DNA of 20,000 bases. It comes from an uncultured virus (IMG/VR IMGVR_UViG_3300035204_001483) (taxonomy: Duplodnaviria > Heunggongvirae > Uroviricota > Caudoviricetes). Position 1 is the stretch's first letter. Every line of letters starts with the position of its first letter. The stretch lies in IMG/VR virus record IMGVR_UViG_3300035204_001483. One strand, given 5' to 3'. The notes below the pieces were generated by a model. That model was not told the origin of the DNA and ran no database searches. It was given only the letters and a program-made list of their open reading frames with translations. Shown piece by piece: positions 885 through 19,014 of the stretch. Both the position numbers and the translations under genes were made by a program.

Positions 885-1643
885 TTAAAGATTCCCAAGA
901 TAGCCTCGATCAAGGGACATGATTGAACCATCAAGTTCAACAGAATCAGCTACCTCTATTGGGTTAACCTGAATACGAACGCCATTCTCGCGGAGTAGAT
1001 ACATTAACGCTTCTATTGAGTGTCCGTTTTTCTTCAATCTCCCATTGATGTGAAACTCTCCAAGAAAATTTTCGATCTTGTGTCTAAAACTGTAAGACTT
1101 AATTATTTCATGCTCCGAACACTCACAATCCATCTTCATTACTTTGCATTTTTTGATGTTGTTTTGTTCAAAGATTTCGTCAAGAGTTGTGGATTTGGCT
1201 GAATGAAAAGACATATACTCCGATTCTTCTGCCGCCAAAAAATCTGTAATATTTGCGCCACCAGTATTTCCACGGGGCTGACATAATTCTACATCTCTTC
1301 CGTCAGCAGTAACCGCTAAATTAAACGCTTTTACATTTGTTACGTTATTGGCTTCAATATTTGCCTGTAACGCTTCATAATTTTCCGCAACTGGCTCATA
1401 AGTGTAAATCTTTAACTCAGGAAAAAACTTCGCATAAAACACGCTAACAACCCCGCAATGCCCACCAATATCAATCATTACGTCTCCTTCTTCTACCTCC
1501 AACCCCTCCAGCGTGTATTGAGAAGAAAGTTCTCCCAATGCTATTCCACGAACAGCAGAAGATTGGGGGGATGAATCAGTTAACGTAAGAACTGCTGGCT
1601 TGGTGTTTTCGTCCCAATAAACAGTGTAATCATGGAAGTCCAT
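885..1643 (-). CDS. FkbM-family SAM-dependent methyltransferase
   Basis: Motifs MIDIGGHCG, YTYEPVAENY, NLAV, KMDCECSE (KxDxEGxE-like). Start placed at ATG 1643 (MDFHD) because the TTG extension to 1712 runs through the repeat array. Confidence 0.85.
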   Translation of the reverse strand: MDFHDYTVYWDENTKPAVLTLTDSSPQSSAVRGIALGELSSQYTLEGLEVEEGDVMIDIGGHCGVVSVFYAKFFPELKIYTYEPVAENYEALQANIEANNVTNVKAFNLAVTADGRDVELCQPRGNTGGANITDFLAAEESEYMSFHSAKSTTLDEIFEQNNIKKCKVMKMDCECSEHEIIKSYSFRHKIENFLGEFHINGRLKKNGHSIEALMYLLRENGVRIQVNPIEVADSVELDGSIMSLDRGYLGNL

Positions 1644-1662: not shown

Positions 1663-1976
1663 ATGTTACAATCCTCTAAAAACCATCCGGTGCGGGATGT
1701 TGCAATCCTCAAAAACCACTTTCATCAGGTGATGTTGTTATCCTCTAAAATTACATCTATCATTCATGTTCTAATCCTCTACAAAGGTAGTACGTGTTGT
1801 TGTAATCCTTCTTTTTGTTAAATGTTCTAATCCTCTAATCGATTTCGTGGTATGTTGTAGTCCTATTTAAGGTTATGTTGTTTCCCCCTATTCGTTCAGC
1901 GTGTAGTTGATATCACCAATCAATGTTCTAATCCTCAAGATCATAAACATATTTGCACGTATGTTGCAATCCTAAA
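1663..1976 (-). repeat. interspaced short-repeat array 1 (about 10 copies, unique spacers)
   Basis: Plus-strand copies of ATGTT(G/C/A)(T/C)AATCCTC at 1663, 1697, 1732, 1766, 1797, 1822, 1852, 1875 (degenerate), 1923, 1961; mostly 23-38 nt period; intervening sequences differ. Confidence 0.9.
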
Positions 1977-1977
1977 A

Positions 1978-2388
1978 TGGTGGAGGCGGTGGGAGTCGAA
2001 CCCACGTCTTTAAAACCGTCTGCTCAGATATACTACAAGTTTAGTCGGTGACATACTTGTTAGTTGACCACCGACAGACTAACTAACAAGGTTGGAGGCA
2101 CTTTATTTATACTAGACTCCTCACCCTTCCTAGTTTTTTTTGCTCGCTATCGACGCCCTAGCTCCTTAACGAGCATCCAGAGTAGGACGGGGTAGAACTA
2201 AGCTACCAGCGCAGCCTCTTCGGCCCAACCGAAACGAGCGAGAATCTCGTCTGCTTCAGCCAGTGAAGGAGCTACCATGTCAACGTCATTGTTGGCATAT
2301 ATGTTTTTGATAGAATTTTTAAGAGGCCAACTATCATCCTCTACTTGCAATCTTGCGTAAGGCTCCAAATCGAAACCAGTACGCCCCC
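1978..2388 (-). ncRNA. ssrA: tmRNA (transfer-messenger RNA)
   Basis: 5' GGGGGCGTACTGGTTTCGA; 3' GACGTGGGTTCGACTCCCACCGCCTCCACCA with T-loop and encoded CCA; acceptor stem has the G3-U alanine identity pair; internal tag frame ANNDV...AALVA-stop (2296..2198). Confidence 0.95.
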
Positions 2389-2393
2389 ATAAA

Positions 2394-2404
2394 TTATTAT
2401 ACAC
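2394..2404 (-). promoter_or_regulatory. putative tmRNA promoter (GTGTATAATAA)
   Basis: Contains TATAAT and resembles the GTGTAATAA motif; ends 5 nt before the tmRNA 5' G. Confidence 0.5.
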
Positions 2405-2409
2405 CATTA

Positions 2410-2673
2410 CTACAGTTTGTCATACTGATTTGACCATTTTTTTAAATTGACCAAGGCGATCTTTGAGCGTAAAATTTCCCGCCTCGCTGCTGCGTCATGC
2501 TCCGCAGACTTCAATCTACCCCTGTAATTAGGGTCAGCTTCAGCTTCTTCAAGATTAGTTTCCAGATGACGCAGAACGTGAAGGAATAGGCAGCAATACT
2601 TTTTCTTTTCCCCATCAGTGAGGTTATCGTACTTTTCATCAAGCTCTAAAATGTCTATGTTTTCCAACGACAT
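2410..2673 (-). CDS. hypothetical protein
   Basis: 87-aa ORF tightly packed in a minus-strand gene string. Confidence 0.65.
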   Translation of the reverse strand: MSLENIDILELDEKYDNLTDGEKKKYCCLFLHVLRHLETNLEEAEADPNYRGRLKSAEHDAAARREILRSKIALVNLKKWSNQYDKL

Positions 2674-3962: not shown

Positions 3963-4823
3963 TTAATCCCCGTCTGATTTTTTCTTTGATCTCTCTGCGA
4001 GTTTATTGTCGGCCCAAACGCCTCCTAATTCGGGGATATAATTATCATGTTTTGAAAAGTTCTCTTTGGCCGTAATCACCCTCAGATTATCTTGATGATG
4101 CGCCCCGCCAATAGATAGTGGAATAATGTGGTCTACATGATATTTTTCACCGTGCTTCTTCGTCATATCGTCTCTTTGTTTGTAAAGATTTTCAATAAGT
4201 TTGTAGTCGGTTGTGGGTAACAGGGCTGTAATCTTTAAGGCTCTTCTTTTGCCCTCCCTTGCTCTTATCTTTTCTGGATTCGCTTTAGCGTATTCTTTAG
4301 CTTTCCTGTTAAGCTCTTCCCTGTGGGCTTCGCGATAAGCTTTGCCTTGCGCCAACCCCTTTTCCCTGTTCTTTTTTCTGTAAGCTTTATTCGTCGCCTT
4401 TATCTTCTCCTCGTTGGCTTCGTTGTAAATCTTTTGATACTCTCTAATTTTTTCCTTATTGGCTTGGCGGTAAGCTTTTCTATATTCTGCAATTTCCCCT
4501 TCGTTGGCTTTTCTGTAAGCCTTTATTTTTTCTTTGTTGGCTTTACGGTAAGCCCTGTTACGTGCATCGCACTTTTCCTTGTTGCGAGCATAGTAGGCTT
4601 TGCCTCTTTCGGCGCATTCTTTCCGGTATTCAGGATCGGCCATTTTCTTTTTATGCCTAGCCTTTGACCTAGCCTTACCCGCTTCTCTGACTTCAGGTCT
4701 TTTTTGGTATTCTGCTCGGTATTCTTTAGTTCGCTCTTTTATTCTTTCTTTATTCTCCTCGTAATACCTTTTGCTACTTGCCTTCCTACGCCGATGTCTT
4801 TCCTCCTCGCTCAATTTTTTCAT
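3963..4823 (-). CDS. HNH endonuclease with long K/R/E-rich helical repeat N-terminus (putative homing endonuclease)
   Basis: C-terminal YHVDHIIPL...GGAHHQDNLRVITAKENFSK; N-terminal YRxAN/KEKI repeats of about 15 aa. Confidence 0.9.
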   Translation of the reverse strand: MKKLSEEERHRRRKASSKRYYEENKERIKERTKEYRAEYQKRPEVREAGKARSKARHKKKMADPEYRKECAERGKAYYARNKEKCDARNRAYRKANKEKIKAYRKANEGEIAEYRKAYRQANKEKIREYQKIYNEANEEKIKATNKAYRKKNREKGLAQGKAYREAHREELNRKAKEYAKANPEKIRAREGKRRALKITALLPTTDYKLIENLYKQRDDMTKKHGEKYHVDHIIPLSIGGAHHQDNLRVITAKENFSKHDNYIPELGGVWADNKLAERSKKKSDGD

Positions 4824-7018: not shown

Positions 7019-7211
7019 ACATTGGTGCTGTAAAGTAGGCTTATGTAATTTAGACAAATGCGTTTGTGATTGTCACGAGCAACCTAAAGGGCGCAGCAAA
7101 GCTTATTACAAAACGACAACTCCACCCCCACTTAAAGCAAAAGCCTCAACGCCCGAAAAAGCCCCCAAGAAGAAAAACCGCAGTTGGCGTGACGGCCCAA
7201 CCCCCAACTAA
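6993..7211 (+). CDS. small basic Cys-rich hypothetical protein
   Basis: 72 aa, CC-x4-C-x4-CxCxCH cluster, last gene of the plus-strand string. Confidence 0.6.
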   Translation: MKKLWKKIKHWCCKVGLCNLDKCVCDCHEQPKGRSKAYYKTTTPPPLKAKASTPEKAPKKKNRSWRDGPTPN

Positions 7212-8323
7212 ACGTTAAGACCAAGAGCATTCAATCTGCCTCTAAACTTATCGTAGGGAACATGATTGTAAGATAAGTTTTTGGGGTAGGGTATCCAATA
7301 ATCTCTACGTTGCTCCATATCTTTATCGAAAATTCCTTCGGCCATTAAGCTGGCTACGCTAGAAATAGGAAACGCTGTTGCTTTTTGCATGGCGGAAAAT
7401 CCATCTAAATCTCCAAAAATGGCTAGTTCTTCTTTCCATTCTACTTTTTCTCCGTCTACAAATACCTTAACTAAAACAACGTCACCTGTATCGTGTGTAT
7501 CTTTGCACCCTTTTTCAAAAGCTTCTCTAACGCATTCCTCGCTCTGATTTCTGATTAAAAATCTGACTATGTCCCTATGCCCCTCGTATCTTAAGGTTTT
7601 ATAATAGCATTTTTCAACCCCCTTGTCTTTCATGCTAAGGATGGTGTGGGATGCCCCGCCGCTAGTGCAAAACGCTTCTAACTGCCCTAATATACCGCAG
7701 TCTACAGTTTCTCGGTGGCTCATTCCCTCTACTATTTTTATTTGCCCGTCCTCTAACACTTCACAGTCATCTTTATATTCATTTATGAGTCCGTCAATAG
7801 ACCAAGTGACAACGTAATCTAACGGGTGATTTACTTTTGAGGTCGGCAACCCCCCCACCATCATCTTGACTGACGTCACCTGTCTGTGTAATTGTTTGTA
7901 CCCATGTTCCGCTAAAATATTCGCCCATCCAGGGGCCAAACCAAGATCAGTGAACACAGGTTTAGTCGCGTTTTCCTTGGCGTAACTGTTGATGTGATGA
8001 GAGACATCTACTCTGCCGCCCAAGTCACAATAACGAAATCCATTATCTACACACCAGTAAGCAATCTCTTCAGTTTGATGATAAGGCAAGCTACTAATTA
8101 CCACATCTGGTTTTTCATGGGTAAGTAGGACGGTCTCCATCATCTTGTTGGCATCGTTTTGATCCGTTAAATAAAATGCTCCTTCCTTACCTTCAATGTG
8201 CTTCCTGAAATTATTAGCAGCACCCTCATACGAATCTAAACCAACGACATAGAAACCTAGTTTCTTCATGGCGTAGCATATAGCTTCTCCCATTCTGCCT
8301 ACGCCAAGTATTGCCGCTTTCAC
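7208..8323 (-). CDS. saccharopine dehydrogenase family protein (lysine 6-dehydrogenase-like)
   Basis: Rossmann GVGRMG, SSLPY, YCDLGG, DLGLAPGW, VTWSIDGLINEY, YKTLRYEGH, SAMQKATAFP. Confidence 0.88.
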   Translation of the reverse strand: MKAAILGVGRMGEAICYAMKKLGFYVVGLDSYEGAANNFRKHIEGKEGAFYLTDQNDANKMMETVLLTHEKPDVVISSLPYHQTEEIAYWCVDNGFRYCDLGGRVDVSHHINSYAKENATKPVFTDLGLAPGWANILAEHGYKQLHRQVTSVKMMVGGLPTSKVNHPLDYVVTWSIDGLINEYKDDCEVLEDGQIKIVEGMSHRETVDCGILGQLEAFCTSGGASHTILSMKDKGVEKCYYKTLRYEGHRDIVRFLIRNQSEECVREAFEKGCKDTHDTGDVVLVKVFVDGEKVEWKEELAIFGDLDGFSAMQKATAFPISSVASLMAEGIFDKDMEQRRDYWIPYPKNLSYNHVPYDKFRGRLNALGLNV

Positions 8324-8719
8324 TTATTCCCTCCAAGATAATTTTATTAAGTTGTCACCTAAAAATTCCTGCGTGTACCTGATGGCATCCATTGGATCAA
8401 AAGCTTTACAAGTATAGATATCAACAGAAAAAAACCTAGGAGTCCTGTTATCCCAAGTGTAAATATGCATTCCGCTTTCTTTCCAATGAACAAAAGCGCA
8501 CCACCCGTACCTAGGTTCATGATTTAGAACGGGAGAAGTGATTAGCTCCATATTTAATACCGAACTAATCTCCTTAGCGTATTGAGTCATATCTTCAGGT
8601 AAGAAAATATTATGCAACGTACCCTCAATAACCAAACGCTGCCTACAAATGTCGGGAGCTAAATCTACCCAAGTTTCGCCTTTCGGCCCAGCTACCCCTT
8701 TGTGACCTGCCCAACTCAT
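8324..8719 (-). CDS. pyruvoyl-dependent decarboxylase proenzyme (AdoMetDC/SpeD-SpeH fold)
   Basis: E-S autocleavage motif (WKESGMHIYTW) and downstream SVDIYTCKAFD. Confidence 0.75.
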   Translation of the reverse strand: MSWAGHKGVAGPKGETWVDLAPDICRQRLVIEGTLHNIFLPEDMTQYAKEISSVLNMELITSPVLNHEPRYGWCAFVHWKESGMHIYTWDNRTPRFFSVDIYTCKAFDPMDAIRYTQEFLGDNLIKLSWRE

Positions 8720-8732
8720 TATCTACGTCTCC

Positions 8733-9128
8733 TCATAGCTCTTCAATCCTTTTTGCTTTGTCATCGATTACCATATCGCAAGCGGGCTTTATGTATTTAC
8801 CTTTTGATCCCGTGGAAAGGTCATGGAACTTACACCCCCAAAACTCTAGTTGGCTCCAAGTGAACTCATAGTAGCATTTTCCCAAAGCTCTAGATTTTTT
8901 TGAGCCACCCCTAGCTGTCCAGTAAATAACGTACCAACCCTCATCATATAATTTATTTATTTTGGCTATGTTCTCTTGGTTTGGTTCTGCAAGATCATAT
9001 TGCCTCTTGCCTGAGTAAAAGCAAATTGTTTCGTCTATGTCTACCAATACTACGCGCCTGTCATCGGAAGAAAACTTCTTTGATTCGTGAAATTCCATAT
9101 ATTGTGCTGCTTCTGGGTGTTGGTACAT
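8733..9128 (-). CDS. small HAD-superfamily phosphatase
   Basis: Motif I VDIDETI, motif II WTARG, KP and IDDK motifs. Confidence 0.8.
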   Translation of the reverse strand: MYQHPEAAQYMEFHESKKFSSDDRRVVLVDIDETICFYSGKRQYDLAEPNQENIAKINKLYDEGWYVIYWTARGGSKKSRALGKCYYEFTWSQLEFWGCKFHDLSTGSKGKYIKPACDMVIDDKAKRIEEL

Positions 9129-9130
9129 TC

Positions 9131-9406
9131 TTATTCGTTTTTTTGTCTAAATCTTTTTACTCCATACCTTATGGCAAATAAAACTGTTAAGGTGATGGCG
9201 CAATACAGAAGTAAATTTGTTACCGTCTTCGTGGTGACGGGTACTTTATGTGTCGGTGGAACAATTATTTTCTTTGGCTGCTCCGTCCGCTCAACCTTTT
9301 CTCCCTTATCCCAGCCAACTAAGTTTTTGACAGCTTTGCATCCCGTGAAGCAGAAAATCGCACACAATAAATATATTTTTATATTTTTAATACTATCCCT
9401 TTTCAT
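9131..9406 (-). CDS. putative lipoprotein with C-terminal TM helix
   Basis: Lipobox FTGC, short Pro-containing linker, TM LLLYCAITLTVLFAI, basic tail. Confidence 0.7.
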   Translation of the reverse strand: MKRDSIKNIKIYLLCAIFCFTGCKAVKNLVGWDKGEKVERTEQPKKIIVPPTHKVPVTTKTVTNLLLYCAITLTVLFAIRYGVKRFRQKNE

Positions 9407-9407
9407 G

Positions 9408-10922
9408 TCACTTCATTCCTTGTGGGAAAGTAAGCGTATCTGCATGGTTAACCGTCCAGCTTACTTCGTGAGTCACCGCTCTATATGTTCTAGCTGCGCT
9501 TGGGAAACCGTTTCCAGATTTTTTGACCCCGCCAAACGCAAGGTGTGATTCAGCGGCAATTGAGCCTCCGTTCCAATAAATCATTCCTGCGTCACACTCT
9601 TCCCTCATTATTCTCGCTTTTCTAAAGTCATTCGTTAGAACTCCCACGGCAAGGCCATAGTCAGTATCATTATAGATACGTATTGCATCATCAATCGTGT
9701 CAAAAGGAATAATGGCTACGTGAGGCCCAAAAACCTCGTTTTTTAAATATGGTACATCTCTCCACTCGGTCTGATAAACCAAAGGGGTAGAATAAAAAGC
9801 TTTACCGTTTATAGAGTCATAACTTGGACGCAGTAAGACTTCTACATCTCCATCATCCAAAACCATGCTATTATATTTTTCAACCTTTTCAAACCCCTGC
9901 TTGTTAACGATAGGGCCATAAAAAACGCTTTCATCAATATCGTAATCTTCCCAAGATGGTTGGTCATGACCACTCTTTAGGAATGGGTTGCCCGTTTTTA
10001 ATTCTTGAGCCTTTCTGGCGAACTTATGAGCAAAATCGTCGTAAATATCTCTTTGCACTATCATCCTGCCGGAAGAAACACACCTTTGACCGGAAAGCTT
10101 AAAAGCACTAGCTACCGCTGAAGATACAGCTAAGTCAGGTTCGACATCATTAAAAATGATACACGCAGATTTACTGCCCATTTCGCAAGATGTAGTTTTG
10201 TGCCAACTCGCGGCAGCTACTTTTCTAATATGTTGGCCAACTTCGGCACTACCAGTAAAACAAATATGATCAACATTATCGCGAGCCAAAAGGTCACCAG
10301 TATTCCCATCGCCATGAACCAAATTAATGACTCCATGAGGAAGACCAGCTTCTTCATAAATTTCCACAGCCATTTGTGTTGACATCGGCGCATCTTCACT
10401 AGGTTTAATCACAACCGTATTTCCCTCAACGATGGCTGGGGCAGCGCACCAGTAAGCTCCGATAGCTAGAGGAAAATTAAACGGAGATATAATAGCTATT
10501 ACACCCTTGGGCTTACGTAACATATAAGAATCTTTATCTTCTATCTCGGAAGAGACAGCTTCCCCGTGAGAATACCTACCAGAACTAAAAGCGAATTGAG
10601 CCATATGAAGAGCTTCGTTTACTTCAGCTATGCTTTCGTTATAGTTTTTGCCTGTTTCTAAGGAAATTACTGTAGCTAGTTCTTCTTTGCGTCTTTCTAT
10701 TATTTTAGAAACTTTATACATATAGTCAGAGCGCACAAAACGACTGACCTTCTTCCATTTATGAAAGGTTCGTCTTGCTAACCCCACCGCTTTTGATACA
10801 CCATTAAGTTCAGTTTGAGGAAAGACTCCTAAAGTTTCTCCCGTGGAAGGATTTAACTTTGTATACATTTCTGATGTAACTTCCCACTTTCCGTCAATAT
10901 AATTTTTTCCTTCTAACTCCAT
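9408..10922 (-). CDS. NAD(P)+-dependent aldehyde dehydrogenase
   Basis: SPFNFP, KPSE, FTGSAEVG, catalytic Glu in CEMGSK, catalytic Cys in SGQRC, EVFGP, FGGVKKSGNG. Confidence 0.95.
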   Translation of the reverse strand: MELEGKNYIDGKWEVTSEMYTKLNPSTGETLGVFPQTELNGVSKAVGLARRTFHKWKKVSRFVRSDYMYKVSKIIERRKEELATVISLETGKNYNESIAEVNEALHMAQFAFSSGRYSHGEAVSSEIEDKDSYMLRKPKGVIAIISPFNFPLAIGAYWCAAPAIVEGNTVVIKPSEDAPMSTQMAVEIYEEAGLPHGVINLVHGDGNTGDLLARDNVDHICFTGSAEVGQHIRKVAAASWHKTTSCEMGSKSACIIFNDVEPDLAVSSAVASAFKLSGQRCVSSGRMIVQRDIYDDFAHKFARKAQELKTGNPFLKSGHDQPSWEDYDIDESVFYGPIVNKQGFEKVEKYNSMVLDDGDVEVLLRPSYDSINGKAFYSTPLVYQTEWRDVPYLKNEVFGPHVAIIPFDTIDDAIRIYNDTDYGLAVGVLTNDFRKARIMREECDAGMIYWNGGSIAAESHLAFGGVKKSGNGFPSAARTYRAVTHEVSWTVNHADTLTFPQGMK

Positions 10923-11554: not shown

Positions 11555-11965
11555 ATGCCCAAAAAGCGTAGGAAAAAGAATCCTTGGAAAAAGCTGATGG
11601 GTAATTTACGCCTAAATGGGCATAAGAAAAAAGAACATGGCAGAGGTAATCCAAATCACGGGATATTAGGCTCTTCGCCAAGAAGAATTATAAATGTCAC
11701 AGAAAAGGACTTAAAACAAGTATACGAAAACCAAAAGGGGGAATGTTATTGGTTCGGAATAAAATTAAACCCTATGGACATTTTTATCACCCATAACCCA
11801 ATGGCAATGAGCGTAGACAGAATAGATAACAGCAAAGACTACCTCAAAGACAATATCGTTATTTGTTGCCGCATGGCGAACTTAGGCCGAAGCACTTGTG
11901 ATTATAAAAAATTTAAAAAAATAATAAAAAACTTAAAAAATGAAATCTCGCAAAATAATAAATAG
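11555..11965 (+). CDS. HNH-like (His-Me finger) nuclease-family protein
   Basis: QKGECYWFG...SVDRIDNSKDYLKDNIVICC...N motif common in phage HNH-like proteins. Confidence 0.75.
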   Translation: MPKKRRKKNPWKKLMGNLRLNGHKKKEHGRGNPNHGILGSSPRRIINVTEKDLKQVYENQKGECYWFGIKLNPMDIFITHNPMAMSVDRIDNSKDYLKDNIVICCRMANLGRSTCDYKKFKKIIKNLKNEISQNNK

Positions 11966-12473: not shown

Positions 12474-13063
12474 CCCTGAAGCATCGCTGTCCAAGTAAAG
12501 TAGACGTTTTCCTCCGTCTCTTCTGGGGGGAAAACCATAAACCTTTGAAGCCACGAAGGAATCACTATCATCTTCCCCTCATGTAGCTCCATAACAAAAA
12601 CGTCAGAATTAAAAACGTTTACATTAGTGATATTTGGCCTAATTGCCCAAGCTTGCATACGTGGGTCATTCAAAATTACTCTACCCCCTCCAGCCTTAAG
12701 GCAATAAATCCCACTAAAAACGTTATTAGAATAAACCTCTGGAGGCGATCTGTCTGCCTCTGTGACTGTATGAGCGGTAAGGCTTGTCAATGAAACCTCA
12801 TCATACTGAAAAGATAAGAAATCTAAAGCGTGCCGCACGGACTCCAAAGCACATTTTTTGAATTTTTCAAAGTCCTCACTCATGTGCAAGGTGTTCTGGG
12901 TAGACCAATTAGGTAACCCGCTCGGATTTTTAATCTTCTGCAAGGCATCAAATAAAGAATCGTTCAGGTCTTCCGATTCTTCCACATCGAGCTCGAAAAC
13001 GTTCGTTGGAAAAATGGGGATATGTTTTGGGCCTTTCGGCGTTTCTTCACTTTTATTCTCCAT
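12470..13063 (-). CDS. TIGR02466-like 2OG-Fe(II) oxygenase-fold protein with degenerate metal ligands
   Basis: IFPT, FSGIYCL, DPR, EGKMIVIPSWL match the family, but HxH is replaced by EVY and the distal His by R. Confidence 0.7.
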   Translation of the reverse strand: MENKSEETPKGPKHIPIFPTNVFELDVEESEDLNDSLFDALQKIKNPSGLPNWSTQNTLHMSEDFEKFKKCALESVRHALDFLSFQYDEVSLTSLTAHTVTEADRSPPEVYSNNVFSGIYCLKAGGGRVILNDPRMQAWAIRPNITNVNVFNSDVFVMELHEGKMIVIPSWLQRFMVFPPEETEENVYFTWTAMLQG

Positions 13064-13325
13064 AATTAAATCCTTCTACTCCCTTACCGTTCCAAGGGTA
13101 CTCTCCGTCGTGAGTTTTTACAACTTTATTTTTGTGGTTTAGCTTTAAGTACTTTATTGTTCCAACGGAGTCCAATAGGGTATCTACGTCTTTAATTGCT
13201 ACCGTAGCCCTCTTCTTTTCGTCATCACGGAAAAGTATATGGGTTGCCCCTGTGGGAGGACGGGGCAAATATATATCTCCGACTTTCCTATAAGGCTTCT
13301 TTTTAAACGGCATCTGCTTCCTCAA
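13053..13325 (-). CDS. hypothetical protein
   Basis: 90-aa ORF overlapping both neighbours. Confidence 0.65.
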   Translation of the reverse strand: MRKQMPFKKKPYRKVGDIYLPRPPTGATHILFRDDEKKRATVAIKDVDTLLDSVGTIKYLKLNHKNKVVKTHDGEYPWNGKGVEGFNYGE

Positions 13326-14241
13326 AAAAATGCTGCAAGTCTTTTTTTCTTTTCTGCAAAGTAAAACGTAACTTACGAAAAGCTATCGCCTCAATTTGCC
13401 TAATTCGTTCTCGCGTGACTTTATATTTTTTCCCAATTTTTTCAAGGGTGTTTTTGTCTCTTACTCCAAACCCAAAACGAAGTTTTAAGATGTCCATCTC
13501 TCTTCTGGTAAGTCTTTCCTCCATTAATTTACGTAACTGTTTGAATCTATCATTCATCTCCGCCTCTTTGTCTGGGCTCAAGAAAGAAATGTCAGGAATT
13601 AAATCTCCTATCTCTTGATCCTCTTCTTCTCCTATTTTCTTATCCAAAGAAACGATTCCCTCTCTCGTAAATACTATGTTTTCAACCTGCAAAAGCGTCA
13701 TCTTTAAGCCTATCGCGATCTCATCAGGCGAGGGGTCTTGATCAAACTGATCTTTGTACTTTTGAATAAACTCAAAGACCTTTTTTGTTTTGCCTTGATA
13801 GTGAACGGGTAGTCTAATTAAATTTCCCTTATTTGCTATGGCTCTCAAAATGTTTTGCTTAATCCACCAAACCGCATAAGTAGAAAATTTTACGGTATTG
13901 CCATTTTTAGCTACTATTCCAGGTTTGTATTTATCTGCTGCTGTAGCAAGCCCGATATTGCCCTCGCTTATCAAATCGATATCATCCATCCTGCCTTTGT
14001 ATTTTCTGGCAACGCTTACTACGAGGCGCAAGTTGGACAGTATCATCTTTTCTCTGGCCGCTATGCCAGCTTTACGAGTGTATTGACCAGCTTTTCTGTT
14101 GTTTTTCCATTTTTGAATTTTAGTTGCAAGAATCTGCTCTTCCTCTCTTTTTAAAAGCGGGGTATTCAAAGCTTGGTTCGAGTACATAGTCATTAAGTCT
14201 CGGCTTTGGCTTAAGCTTTCGTATGGTTCAGTCTCTCCCAT
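13303..14241 (-). CDS. RNA polymerase sigma-70 factor, RpoD/RpoS-like (regions 1.2-4, no region 1.1)
   Basis: PLLKREEE (1.2), SNLRLVVSVARKY, DLISEGNIGL, KFSTYAVWWIKQ, IRLPVH, TRERIRQIE; start set at ATG 14241 (TAATG overlap with upstream gene). Confidence 0.95.
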   Translation of the reverse strand: MGETEPYESLSQSRDLMTMYSNQALNTPLLKREEEQILATKIQKWKNNRKAGQYTRKAGIAAREKMILSNLRLVVSVARKYKGRMDDIDLISEGNIGLATAADKYKPGIVAKNGNTVKFSTYAVWWIKQNILRAIANKGNLIRLPVHYQGKTKKVFEFIQKYKDQFDQDPSPDEIAIGLKMTLLQVENIVFTREGIVSLDKKIGEEEDQEIGDLIPDISFLSPDKEAEMNDRFKQLRKLMEERLTRREMDILKLRFGFGVRDKNTLEKIGKKYKVTRERIRQIEAIAFRKLRFTLQKRKKDLQHFFEEADAV

Positions 14242-14780
14242 TATCTTAATTCCTTTCTCAAAAGTCTCCATCTATCGCTGTCTATTTTTTTCTCACCACT
14301 ATCTATGCTTTTTAACATAGACACAACCTCTTCAACACTATCGTAAATGTAATGATGCGGAAGCATACCCATAATCCAAAGGGGGGTTGCATGTTTGCCA
14401 CCTTCCATAGAAATGAAAATTGGTTTTTTCATTCTAACAGCGGTAACGAGTTCTTCTGCGCTCCCCCAACTAGCGACCTCTGGCAAAAGGTGGGCTATAA
14501 TAAAATCAGACCTATCAACAAGATTTAAATCGTAACTGCGAACAAGGCTCATTCTCTCTGCTACGTCGTTGAAATAACCGTGTTTCTGACAATGATCTAA
14601 TGAAAGACGGGTGTCTTCGTCTTCTTTTACATCTTTAACGAATGGCTTTTTATAAGGGTTAAAAGTGACGATATTTAATCCCGCCAACTCCTCTTCAACG
14701 TACTCCCTCCAGTCACGACCATTAGCGTATTGCATGTGGCCCACTAAGTAGGTACGAGTTTTATACAAAACATTTTCCAT
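14241..14780 (-). CDS. nucleoside 2-deoxyribosyltransferase-like protein
   Basis: TYLVGHM, WRE, FNPY, DLNLVDRSD, SWGSAEE, KPI motifs of the NDT/RCL fold. Confidence 0.75.
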   Translation of the reverse strand: MENVLYKTRTYLVGHMQYANGRDWREYVEEELAGLNIVTFNPYKKPFVKDVKEDEDTRLSLDHCQKHGYFNDVAERMSLVRSYDLNLVDRSDFIIAHLLPEVASWGSAEELVTAVRMKKPIFISMEGGKHATPLWIMGMLPHHYIYDSVEEVVSMLKSIDSGEKKIDSDRWRLLRKELR

Positions 14781-16800: not shown

Positions 16801-16973
16801 ATGTCATAATCCTCTAAAAACTTTTTGTGCTCATGTCGTAATCCCCGTGCGATTGTGTAGGTTGTGTTATAACCCTCAAAAACTCTAGACCTTCGCATAT
16901 GTTGTAATCCTCACACATCATTTGCTGTTTGTGGTAATCCTCCGATGACAAGGGCTATATGTTGCAATCCCTT
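16801..16973 (-). repeat. interspaced short-repeat array 2 (6 copies)
   Basis: Copies at 16801, 16833, 16864, 16899, 16929, 16959 (periods 32, 31, 35, 30, 30); same consensus and orientation as array 1. Confidence 0.88.
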
Positions 16974-17845: not shown

Positions 17846-17926
17846 TTGTTGTAATCCTCTATAAATCGGATAAGGGGCAATGTTCTAATCCTCATTAGGC
17901 TCGTTCATGTGGTGTTGTAATCGCTC
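17846..17926 (-). repeat. interspaced short-repeat array 3 (3 copies, plus a degenerate one near 17821)
   Basis: Copies at 17846, 17880, 17912 (periods 34, 32). Confidence 0.8.
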
Positions 17927-18345
17927 TCTTCTAAATAGTTATCTACTTCTTCCTTTGAGGCAAAAAGCATATTCTGCCCGTCAATATAAAACGTTGCTCC
18001 ATGATACTTCATTGTGCGAATTTTCCCCCCGCTCAAAGGGGTATAAACGTCTCCAACGTATTTAGCGCATAAACCCAAATCCCTAACCTTGTAAATTTTA
18101 CCAGCTACAGGCCCATGAACCTGCTCAAAGGCTAAGGTTATTTCTTCGACATATTCTTCGGCATATTCTTCGATATCCTCGTCTACCTCTTTGGTTACCG
18201 CTTCGCATCTACCGGAAAAATCAAAATTCTCTTCTATATCTTCGTCAGTAAGGTCGCCATACTTCCAAGGTGGCGCAGCGGGTAATTTGGCTACGGGCTT
18301 TTCTTCGTAATAAACTTCAATACCCACTAGACTAGATTTTTTCAT
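17905..18345 (-). CDS. acidic hypothetical protein
   Basis: 146-aa ORF overlapping the end of the ECF sigma gene. Confidence 0.7.
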   Translation of the reverse strand: MKKSSLVGIEVYYEEKPVAKLPAAPPWKYGDLTDEDIEENFDFSGRCEAVTKEVDEDIEEYAEEYVEEITLAFEQVHGPVAGKIYKVRDLGLCAKYVGDVYTPLSGGKIRTMKYHGATFYIDGQNMLFASKEEVDNYLEESDYNTT

Positions 18346-18964
18346 GATCGATTTCTAAAACTTTTTGGGCTCTTTGTCTAGCGTAAAATAATCTAGACAT
18401 AACGGTTCCAACTGAGCACTTCATCGCTTTTGCTGCTTCTTTGTAAGTCATCTCTTCTTCTAAAACTAATTCCACTGTCTTCGCTTGGGCTGGATTAAGT
18501 TTCTTTTTTATTTTTTTAAAAATTTTATTTAAATCCCTAGCTTTTTCTTTTGCTTCTAAGTTCAAGCTGGGAAGCTTATCACTGGAAAACAGTGTACCAT
18601 CACCTTGTAAGAAGTCAAGGGGTTTTTTTTCATCATCGTCGTCTCTAGTTAAATCAGAAAAGCAGACTTCCCTTCCTCTTTTTTTGATGGTTCGCCTAAG
18701 TAAGTCGTAATGGTTGTTTTTTAGCACCCTGTAAATCCAAGTTTTGAAACTGCTTTTGAACTTAAAGGTGCTTATTTTTTGCCAACATTTTATGTAAGTT
18801 ATTTGTAGTACCTCTTCCACTTCAAAGTTTCCGTTTTTCAGAGCGGAAGAAAGAATGAACGACGAGTGCCTTTCCATCAAGACCTCAAAGGCAATTTTAT
18901 CTTTTTTCTGGCTTTTCCTGACTAGCTTTTCGTCAGAAAGTGCTTCGAGTTTTTCTCGTTTCAT
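18332..18964 (-). CDS. ECF-family RNA polymerase sigma factor (RpoE-like)
   Basis: SDEKLV, AFEVL, FKFKSSFKTWIYRV (region 2), MTYKEAAKAMKCSVGTVMSRLFYAR (region 4.2). Confidence 0.92.
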   Translation of the reverse strand: MKREKLEALSDEKLVRKSQKKDKIAFEVLMERHSSFILSSALKNGNFEVEEVLQITYIKCWQKISTFKFKSSFKTWIYRVLKNNHYDLLRRTIKKRGREVCFSDLTRDDDDEKKPLDFLQGDGTLFSSDKLPSLNLEAKEKARDLNKIFKKIKKKLNPAQAKTVELVLEEEMTYKEAAKAMKCSVGTVMSRLFYARQRAQKVLEIDHEKI

Positions 18965-18999: not shown

Positions 19000-19014
19000 G
19001 TGTTGTAATCCTCT
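19000..19014 (-). repeat. solo copy of the array repeat
   Basis: gtgttgtaatcctct, near-consensus, intergenic upstream of the ECF sigma gene. Confidence 0.7.

Follow-up and report, generated by a model that had tools for sequence, protein, structure and literature searches.

A dispersed, strand-specific family of short repeat-spacer arrays in uncultured marine phages, with a core resembling the end of CRISPR repeats

The 20,000-nucleotide (nt) stretch of DNA analysed here (the window) belongs to an uncultured virus of the Caudoviricetes (IMG/VR record IMGVR_UViG_3300035204_001483) and carries, directly behind a gene for transfer-messenger RNA (tmRNA), an array of short direct repeats separated by spacers (1663..1977, minus strand) that is a member of a dispersed, strand-specific family of repeat-spacer arrays in uncultured marine phages. 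The DNA of the window is phage-like, with 40% G+C and open reading frames (ORFs) almost all on the minus strand, and seawater or marine metagenome runs from 13 studies contain its sequence or close relatives. The phage tmRNA gene lies at 1978..2388 (-), limits on which ARAGORN and Rfam agree, and it displays both a covariance-model match to RF00023 (148.7 bits against a 47-bit cut-off) and a tag frame of 32 residues; it is the sole Rfam match in the window. A sigma-70-type promoter-like site, ATGACA-16-TATAAT (2396..2423, minus strand), found by a consensus scan with 11/12 matches, ends 8 nt upstream of the tmRNA and is likely, from its sequence and position, to be the start of a joint tmRNA-array transcript. 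On the far side of the array, the ATG of an FkbM-type methyltransferase gene (885..1643, minus strand; Pfam PF05050 1e-9, PHROG 8156) begins 19 nt past the final unit.

In minus-strand direction, TTT comes directly after the tmRNA CCA (1980-1978), and the repeat begins next with its first copy, TAGGATTGCAACAT, at 1974-1961. Reading and pattern scanning together delineate ten units, each an AU-rich stretch followed by (A)GAGGATT-R-N-AACA-Y, with cores at 1961-1974, 1923-1936, 1875-1890, 1852-1865, 1822-1835, 1797-1810, 1766-1779, 1732-1745, 1697-1710 and 1663-1676. Nine of these match GAGGATTNNAACAT with two mismatches or fewer, the copy at 1875-1890 is degenerate (TAGGGGGAAACAACAT), and 4/10 copies bear 1-4 mismatches; for the three copies at the end distant from the tmRNA the start-to-start spacing is 34, 35 and 34 nt, and the spacers, 11-57 nt long, are unlike each other. 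Matches to AGGATTRNAACAT with at most two mismatches number 22 in the window against 5.01 +/- 2.17 expected, a count reached by 0/200 shuffles, and the 14-mer at the same tolerance is found 20 times on the minus strand and 0 times on the plus strand. A consensus scan of the minus strand found no terminator-like site from 1978 to 1700, and the only one within the array, a weak 5-bp hairpin with a T-run at 1699-1684, carries no weight because 18 such sites occur in the window against 16.2 +/- 3.9 in shuffles. The initial annotation of this locus had described about ten minus-strand direct repeats with differing spacers, a first copy within a few nt of the CCA end (it begins 3 nt past it), no intervening terminator and a most regular trio of copies at the far end; this anatomy is right, and the arrangement recurs in a 74%-identical relative. 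Logan contigs from metatranscriptome runs X15-X18 cover the tmRNA (~1978-2400) with loose ends at 1975-1978 and none of them lies on the array, although contigs can show neither absence nor true RNA ends.

Three other sites of the motif in the window, all on the minus strand, had been overlooked. The pattern scan places a second array of six units at 16801..16972, between a 71-aa ORF, whose stop is abutted by the first unit, and a 60-aa ORF; a third array of two units at 17846..17893 lies upstream of a 114-aa ORF and is syntenic with a two-unit site (77124-77171) of the related phage record G001. A single unit at 19000..19013 stands 35 nt upstream of a gene for an extracytoplasmic function (ECF)-like sigma factor (18332-18964, minus strand; Pfam). 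Two ORFs without annotation that adjoin arrays had no usable match in the Protein Atlas. The association with tmRNA emphasized by the initial annotation is thus a recurring adjacency, seen again in G001, but not the essence of these elements, which occupy four sites in the window and about eight in G001. In the window, G001 and contig L193 alike, the ECF-like sigma gene has an array or a single motif copy ahead of it.

A scan of IMG/VR with a two-unit pattern gave 10 loci on 6 contigs, chief among them G001, a 158-kb phage record, 91% complete, with genes for rIIA/B, ribonucleotide reductase, a Pol III-like polymerase, tubulin, terminase and four sigma-like proteins. At one mismatch or fewer, G001 holds 43 copies of the motif on one strand and 0 on the other, compared with 1 and 1 for a reversed-pattern control; the corresponding strand counts are 10 vs 0 in G002 and 8 vs 0 in G003. 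The copies in G001 form about eight sites within 36.9-46.7 kb and 75.8-87.8 kb. Its tmRNA (123.9 bits by Infernal; ARAGORN made no call there) is directly followed by a 6-unit array, and a search with a 16-nt tmRNA-end pattern, viewed at 80 of at least 116 loci, found two or more units downstream only in G001. The window and G001 share 73.6% identity over 9,980 alignable nt, and the core is kept between them although most spacers differ. Scanning metagenome contigs with the two-unit pattern gave at least 122 distinct loci, and 53 of the matches listed had four or more motif copies; set aside from these by eye were loci with constant periods of 12-39 nt, which are simple tandem repeats (e.g. 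L177, L184, L187, L247 and L260), and high-GC loci, mostly true CRISPR arrays such as L146, L159, L234 and L199. This left 25 marine metagenome contigs among the matches listed as family members, and the statistics on spacing and adjacent spacers given below draw on 16 non-redundant metagenome loci together with the window and G001-G003. The G001 array had 0 matches among 50,697 GenBank phage records; the nearest rIIA, from roseophages, is 27.5% identical, and the only cultured-phage match to the first 8 kb of the window spans 98 nt of Synechococcus phage S-SM2. Rfam gave no credible match on the stand-alone array loci and their adjoining small RNAs (best E = 0.017, far under the gathering score), and the literature searched, on phage tmRNA, sigma factors, rIIA and Shine-Dalgarno (SD)-like tandem-repeat sponges, held nothing on such arrays. 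Given the lack of a match in Rfam, GenBank phages or this literature, the family is undescribed; it is also genuine, conserved and non-coding.

Over 76 clustered copies the core consensus is A-GAGGATT-A/G-N-A(G)-AC-A-Y, a degree of conservation that is inflated by the selection of these copies with that same pattern; the ten window copies, read by eye, give the same profile. The conserved core spans 14-16 nt and has no hairpin. It is preceded by a lead-in of about 10 nt that is AU-rich, C-poor and often TTTAAGTATAA or TTTTTA, and followed by 8-15 nt of random, unconstrained composition. Unit-to-unit distance ranges from 25 to 54 nt (median 36) and is at least 30 nt in 129/134 spacings. The 134 spacings display no 10.5-bp phasing (Rayleigh p = 0.17; p = 0.10-0.25 across 10-11 bp) and no 3-nt or 6-nt periodicity (p = 0.28 for 6 nt). 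The predicted folding of arrays is no better than that of shuffles (z = -0.13 and +0.47), and the core would thus be single-stranded.

The architecture around the units is best displayed by a stand-alone array of G001, where 7 nt separate a TTGACT-17-TATACT promoter with A/T-rich sequence upstream from the first unit, the array extends for about 350 nt devoid of an ORF, and an intrinsic terminator follows about 120 nt past the last unit. The junction of promoter and first unit, TATACT-tcttgta-GTGGATTACAACAT or GTTGATT..., is kept in six contigs (G001, G002, L208, L236, L183 and L147), among which the spacers downstream differ. In the promoter-driven array, the first unit, which lies at the 5' end predicted for the RNA, has neither the GAGG half nor the AU-rich lead-in. 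Every array runs on the same strand as the ORFs that flank it, and arrays occur on the coding strand downstream of promoters or of the tmRNA and in the intervals between early genes. A role as RNA rather than as DNA sites is favoured by the promoter-array-terminator unit without an ORF, the shared gene strand and the absence of helical phasing, in agreement with the RNA-level role that the initial annotation had suggested. Right behind the stand-alone array of G001 (L015:2530-2790, minus strand) are two more small non-coding genes, each with its own TATAAT-type promoter and intrinsic terminator, a layout that is the same in L208, L183, L236 and G002. The second of them contains a conserved GGACCACCUCC(U), presumably a likeness of the 3' end (anti-Shine-Dalgarno) of 16S rRNA.

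Spacers of the family fall into 135 clusters, most of them found in one contig only, with a median length of 22 nt and a 10th-90th percentile range of 16-31 nt. Adjacent spacers score no closer than random pairs (mean -0.158 vs -0.176, p = 0.11, 89 adjacent pairs), and with no detectable relation between neighbours a decayed tandem duplication, the outcome that the initial annotation had named as fatal to its proposal, is rejected. Neutral divergence at 71-79% flank identity could explain most spacer differences. A few spacers are nevertheless kept at about 100%: the best-kept, ACCACGAAATCGATTA, is identical at 16/16 positions in the window (1822-1851, minus strand), G001 and L193; GCACCTCATGTAACYGAATTTAAGTATWA is found in eight contigs and two different arrays, GCACCTCATGTAACYGAA... 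in 8 contigs and AGTACTTCC... in G001 and L193, and AGTACTTCCARTYGGTRTA is counted among them as well. Kept spacers stand in differing order among relatives. The last unit with its leader, ACATTCGCCGTARCT, precedes the methyltransferase gene in the window and the ECF-like sigma gene in G001 and L193, and units therefore move by recombination. No targets of the spacers were found. For 128 spacer clusters, the longest exact matches in 467 kb of array-masked sequence from the window and G001-G003 (both strands) were distributed like those of shuffles, and the best-kept spacer (21 nt) matched only G001 itself in IMG/VR. The ACCACGAAATCGATTA spacer also holds a perfect palindrome, AATCGATT, that includes ATCGAT.

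The fixed letters of the core recur at the ends of CRISPR repeats, a likeness that the initial annotation had noted. When one genome per prokaryote species was scanned for GAGGATTRNAAC occurring twice at 46-66 nt, at least 123 loci were found, and among the matches listed 108/123 have 3-125 copies at a period of about 72 nt, in more than 100 species. In these 108 arrays the motif makes up exactly the final 12 nt of a repeat 36-37 nt long, GTWGC-hairpin-GAGGATTGAAAC, with the handle ATTGAAAC in 101, ATTGGAAC in 5, ATTAAAAC in 1 and ATTATAAC in 1. In its letters, the phage motif equals the 12 nt with which a very common class of CRISPR repeats terminates at the 3' side, GAGG followed by the 8-nt handle ATTGAAAC. 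The phage core varies at handle positions 4-5, and less at 6, where natural handles differ, and the letters fixed in it are those that natural handles keep (AUU...AAC, with GG before). A scan of viral contigs added real CRISPR arrays that end in GTGGATTACAAC (repeat GATGTCTCTCATAGTAATATGAGAGTGGATTACAAC, period 66, beside cas5, cas7 and cas3) and three more CRISPR repeat families that end in GGATTAAAAC. GTGGATTACAAC, with which a real type I repeat ends, is also the exact sequence of the unit that opens the promoter-driven phage array; past its hairpin, that repeat has an 11-nt tail in the type I-C layout. At the level of sequence, the CRISPR likeness of the phage core is real and specific. Repeats of Thermus thermophilus are reported to end in GAGGATTGAAAC or GGGGATTGCGAC, where Cas6 leaves an 8-nt 5' handle that is occupied by Cas5b and is believed to recruit type III proteins (PMC12102369), and type I-C repeats to leave an 11-nt 3' overhang that becomes the handle, with Cas5c recognizing the cut site and the handle downstream (PMC8524198).

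Two other viral records bear CRISPR arrays proper. G008 (the record behind L413; 64.7 kb with direct terminal repeats, 100% complete by CheckV) has a 7-repeat array of GTAACAGAATATATTCCAGTTGAACAAGGATTAAAAC at a period of 73 without cas1, and the same repeat is found in about ten other low-GC viral contigs; such arrays look like phage-borne orphan CRISPR arrays. G005 (behind L438) encodes cas5, a 652-aa ORF, a 125-aa ORF, cas7 and cas3, followed by 25 repeats ending in GTGGATTACAAC (L481:6646-15272), and the same contig has genes for a NikA-like mobilisation protein, a DNA methylase and a LAGLIDADG endonuclease; this may be a type I system borne by a mobile element.

The reading put forward here, as possible rather than probable, is that the arrays may be transcribed, hairpin-less decoys of the CRISPR RNA (crRNA) handle, possibly cut by RNase E at GAGG|AUU. 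The core would be a hairpin-less copy of the 3' end of a class 1 repeat, comprising the cut site GAGG| and the 8-nt handle AUUGAAAC or, alternatively, the 11-nt type I-C handle UGGAUUNNAAC. Array transcription would take place early, either inside early operons or driven by host-type promoters or that of the tmRNA, and host RNase E would most likely free the units, as GAGG|AUU in RNA without structure agrees with the A(-3)/G(-2)/U(+2) signature of the enzyme. RNase E is reported to cut single-stranded RNA with A(-3)/U(+2) in a cyanobacterium and with G(-2)/U(+2) in Salmonella and Vibrio (PMC8682795), and in the III-Bv system of Synechocystis to replace Cas6 by cutting the AU-rich part of the repeat (PMC12464536). 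The first handle of the stand-alone array, 1-5 nt from the predicted transcription start, would need no cut, and tmRNA 3' maturation at CCA would free the first unit behind the tmRNA. The resulting handle-bearing RNAs would occupy Cas5/Cas5c and Csm4/Cmr3 and seed Cas7 filaments, such that real crRNA complexes would be diluted, a Cas6-independent RNA anti-CRISPR of new design.

A number of observations weigh against crRNA-handle decoys. The CRISPR likeness was spotted after the fact, and because the scans were built from the phage motif, the recovery of CRISPR arrays that contain it is partly by construction. The host of the phage may, moreover, use another handle or have no CRISPR at all. The commonest phage variants (ATTACAAC, ATTAAAAC and ATTAGAAC) differ from the commonest natural handle; the most frequent of all, ATTACAAC, is present in 0/108 of the listed genome arrays and was found only in the targeted viral-contig scan. 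The core also exceeds the CRISPR likeness, with an A before GAGG, A-Y after AAC and the AU-rich lead-in, and it resembles the phage's own ribosome-binding sites, e.g. GGAGGATTAAATTATG before rIIB. The units offer no hairpin to Cas6 or Cas5c and lack a 6-nt periodicity (p = 0.28), and the one Racr studied in depth (type I-F) is reported to require its stem-loop, handle-only RNA being inactive (PMC10651486). Neither 2,367 spacers from the 108 or more CRISPR arrays nor 233 spacers (163 distinct) from CRISPR arrays on viral contigs gave more than 15-20-nt chance or self matches to the phage family. It is also not obvious why a decoy should be spread over 4-8 loci, some of them between genes where cutting breaks mRNAs.

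A more doubtful reading, which still carries real weight, regards each unit as an initiation region without a start codon (an AU-rich S1 site, GAGGA, a 7-nt gap and AU) that would serve as a sponge or cis-regulator for a binder other than Cas, with 30S subunits or an RNA-binding protein held so as to stabilise, rank or shut off the translation of early transcripts. The GAGGA with its AU-rich lead-in fits such a site, and close variants stand in front of real genes (GGAGGATTAAATTATG for rIIB, AAGGATTATAATTATG for the TnpB-like gene); in a 55%-GC contig that is unrelated, GAGGATTGAAACATG and GAGGATTGAAACAATG have the look of ordinary ribosome-binding sites. A ribosome covers about 30 nt of mRNA, the same length as the floor between units in 129/134 spacings. 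An SD-like tetramer precedes only 24/94 long ORFs of G001, starts being guessed from the longest ORF, so strong SD copies would stand out; the small RNA gene behind the stand-alone array carries GGACCACCUCCU, which we take to be close to the 16S rRNA 3' end. SD pairing, however, covers GAGG(A) only and leaves the near-invariant AUU and AAC at fixed distance without a role, and start codons are neither enriched nor avoided, given that G follows ACAU in about a fifth of copies as read from the list. No CsrA, Hfq or other RNA-binding family was found among the 35 window ORFs or in G001 (150 ORFs by PHROGs and, by Pfam, 147 ORFs that PHROGs had left without annotation), pairing of four unit variants with the neighbouring small RNAs or tmRNA by RNAduplex was no better than in shuffles in 7/8 tests (p = 0.035-0.47), and the trapping of 30S subunits would harm the phage too. 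Less credible is the idea that the units are simply stacked optimal RNase E sites with no CRISPR link, which would trim the tmRNA 3' trailer, punctuate early polycistronic RNA or titrate the enzyme. RNase E matures tmRNA 3' ends in E. coli, and one array starts right at the tmRNA CCA in both the window and G001; the units are unstructured and AU-rich, and GAGG|AUU matches the A(-3), G(-2), U(+2) signature reported for the enzyme (PMC8682795). That signature needs few and loose positions, however, such that a 14-16-nt core with an invariant AAC 6-8 nt past the cut is left over, as is a stand-alone array driven by its own promoter.

It is similarly improbable that the units are DNA operators or iterons around which a phage regulator, sigma factor, or replication or partition protein would build nucleoprotein complexes. 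Genomes with several clusters of 14-20-bp direct repeats do call iteron or operator arrays to mind, one conserved spacer holds the palindrome AATCGATT, and sigma genes are at hand (two in the window, four sigma-like in G001), ECF sigma promoters having AAC-containing -35 boxes. Helical phasing is absent (p = 0.17 at 10.5 bp), however, as is any 10-11-bp phasing expected of iterons; a two-box promoter per unit is ruled out by the variable unit spacing; arrays lie downstream, not upstream, of the conserved promoter, with a first unit devoid of its GAGG half; and orientation always follows transcription. No rep or par gene was seen beside arrays, where the neighbours are small ORFs, tmRNA, methyltransferase and sigma genes. 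A guide function is open to two versions. In one, of low probability, cas-less arrays would supply 30-40-nt units as minimal crRNAs (8-11-nt handle plus 16-28-nt guide) loaded into host class 1 effectors, the units arising independently of Cas6 through transcription start, tmRNA maturation or RNase E; most would jam the system as junk, spacers kept at about 100% would steer Cas onto host defence genes or rival phages, and by mixing handle variants an array would be suited to several of the CRISPR systems present in the host population. The other, lower still, supposes true guide arrays whose units would guide a TnpB/Cas12u-like protein, an unrecognised phage protein or, in the manner of Cracr, host Cas complexes. 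The largest array of G001 (18 units) is about 240 nt downstream of a 492-aa TnpB-like gene (81130-82608, minus strand; L017:1130-2608; Pfam OrfB_IS605 and Cas12f TNB domain; PADLOC Cas12u4 1.3e-47); a few spacers (ACCACGAAATCGATTA, GCACCTCATGTAACYGAA...) are kept at about 100% across phages 71-79% identical in their flanks, with shuffled order among relatives; and viral Cracr spacers are reported to be short as well, at 21-24 nt. Against this, arrays occupy about eight loci in G001 and four in the window, where 20 kb hold no TnpB; the TnpB-like gene is separated from the array by an 80-aa CxxC ORF, which is no obvious guide scaffold; spacers vary irregularly in length (11-57 nt in the window, family median 22 nt); spacer matches in the phages' own 230 kb are no better than in shuffles and the best-kept spacer has no other match in IMG/VR. 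A search for relatives of the TnpB-like gene beside arrays returned only the query itself, which could be an insertion sequence that landed beside the array, or more than that. The TnpB-like ORF and the overlapping 80-aa CxxC ORF each contain one motif copy.

The effector scan that the initial annotation had called for was equally sparse. No Cas family was detected among 35 window ORFs (PHROGs, Pfam) or 26 (PADLOC), which upholds the statement that the window has no cas gene, and in G001 a single TnpB/Cas12u4-like match was found among 150 (PHROGs), 147 (Pfam) and 110 (PADLOC) ORFs; no class 1 cas gene was found. The Nop domain PF01798 gave 0 matches in 4/4 related records, with control genomes positive, and none among the window ORFs by Pfam. 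The interpretation offered by the initial annotation is therefore partly supported: a CRISPR mimic or sponge fits best and is ranked first, guides lack support, with irregular spacers, no targets found and an effector gene limited to one TnpB/Cas12u-like candidate beside one array in one relative, and the TIGR-like version is the worst fit of its three readings.

If the arrays are crRNA-handle decoys, a phage would attack CRISPR immunity with only a 12-nt piece of the repeat, in many cheap hairpin-less copies that ride early transcripts and are processed by housekeeping RNases. Such elements escape CRISPR finders, screens for whole-repeat mimics and Rfam; the classes of RNA anti-CRISPR would widen to the type I-B, I-C and III handle family, and a search rule would follow, namely the handle plus 4 nt at distances of at least 30 nt on the coding strand. 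If the arrays instead act as a sponge for ribosomes or RNase E, beside a small RNA resembling the 16S tail, they would represent an undescribed phage takeover of host translation or RNA decay. Either way, they constitute a conserved, abundant and unannotated non-coding RNA family in widespread marine phages.

Several features of these genomes merit mention in their own right. The 35 window ORFs profiled by PHROGs and Pfam (26 by PADLOC) include two sigma factors, methyltransferases, HNH endonucleases, polyamine genes and an aldehyde dehydrogenase. The tag of the window tmRNA (1978-2388, minus strand) is unusually long at 32 residues (ANNDVDMVAPSLAEADEILARFGWAEEAALVA, ARAGORN), the G001 tmRNA is 86% identical to it over 318 nt, and in four marine or vent metatranscriptome runs the tmRNA-like contigs are deep. 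The sigma genes of the window are a group-1-like gene with regions 1.2-4 (13303-14271, minus strand) and the ECF-like gene at 18332-18964 (-), and G001 has four sigma-like ORFs. A metabolic block at 7208-10922 (-), syntenic in G001, holds a saccharopine/carboxynorspermidine dehydrogenase-like gene, S-adenosylmethionine decarboxylase, a HAD phosphatase-like gene, aldehyde dehydrogenase (Pfam 6.5e-123) and a glyoxalase-fold protein. HNH or endonuclease VII-like genes lie at 3963-4823 (-) and 11555-11965 (+), the latter on the opposite strand and flanked by metabolic genes, as it also is in G001. A 387-aa tubulin/FtsZ-family protein (Pfam Tubulin 1.4e-9) is encoded in G001 at 12745-13908 (-; L013), along with ORFs of 2,315 and 2,344 aa that have no match in Pfam, PHROG or PADLOC.

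Set beside known systems, the arrays are closest in letters to the 3' end of class 1 repeats, GAGG plus ATTGAAAC (PMC12102369, PMC8524198): 10/12 letters are fixed and identical, the variable handle positions coincide, and free sequence follows right after AAC (2 nt later in the phage). They differ in the absence of an upstream hairpin and of cas genes, in a distance of 30-50 nt between units compared with 66-75 for CRISPR, and in the conserved A-Y after AAC and the AU-rich lead-in. As a CRISPR array the locus is rejected: in place of near-identical repeats of about 23-50 nt it has a 14-16-nt core with a loose AU-rich lead-in and no hairpin, in place of uniform spacers of about 26-72 nt it has spacers of 11-57 nt in the window (family median 22 nt), and the window has no cas gene. 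The TIGR-Tas systems (Faure et al. 2025, PMC12045711), in the description drawn on here, likewise have short repeats, short spacers and units of about 35 nt and reside on phages, but they are built from two alternating 8-12-nt repeats with UG...CCA boxes and two 9-nt spacers in a fixed 36-nt unit next to a Nop protein (Tas), all of which are absent here; with one contiguous repeat per unit and spacings of 25-54 nt, a TIGR array is rejected as well.

Tandem short RNA motifs in one non-coding transcript, with GGA in the core, are shared with the CsrB/RsmZ sponges and ToxI arrays. Csr sites, however, are GGA in hairpin loops that need no 14-nt core, and ToxI consists of fully conserved 36-nt repeats beside a toxin gene, compared with units here of which half is unconstrained; no CsrA or toxin partner was found by Pfam in the window or G001, or by PADLOC. 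Viral repeat mimics are known directly behind promoters and without cas genes, and the Racr (Camara-Wilpert et al. 2023, PMC10651486) resemble the phage arrays as non-coding, repeat-like, promoter-adjacent phage sequences proposed to compete for Cas proteins. A conserved promoter with no ORF and no cas nearby is displayed by six contigs of the family; the array at 1663-1977 follows the tmRNA promoter and gene. Racr, as described in that source, are solitary whole repeats that include the Cas6 stem-loop, whereas the phage arrays copy the last 12 nt only, without a stem-loop, in 2-18 units at several loci. The Cracr arrays (bioRxiv 10.1101/2024.10.29.618823), in turn, are multiplexed CRISPR-like phage units with spacers shortened to 21-24 nt, and some spacers of the present family are conserved as if targeted; by that account, Cracr repeats have a hairpin, are cut by Cas6, number 2-3 spacers per array and carry spacers that match cas or toxin promoters of known hosts, in contrast to the hairpin-less, dispersed arrays of these marine phages.

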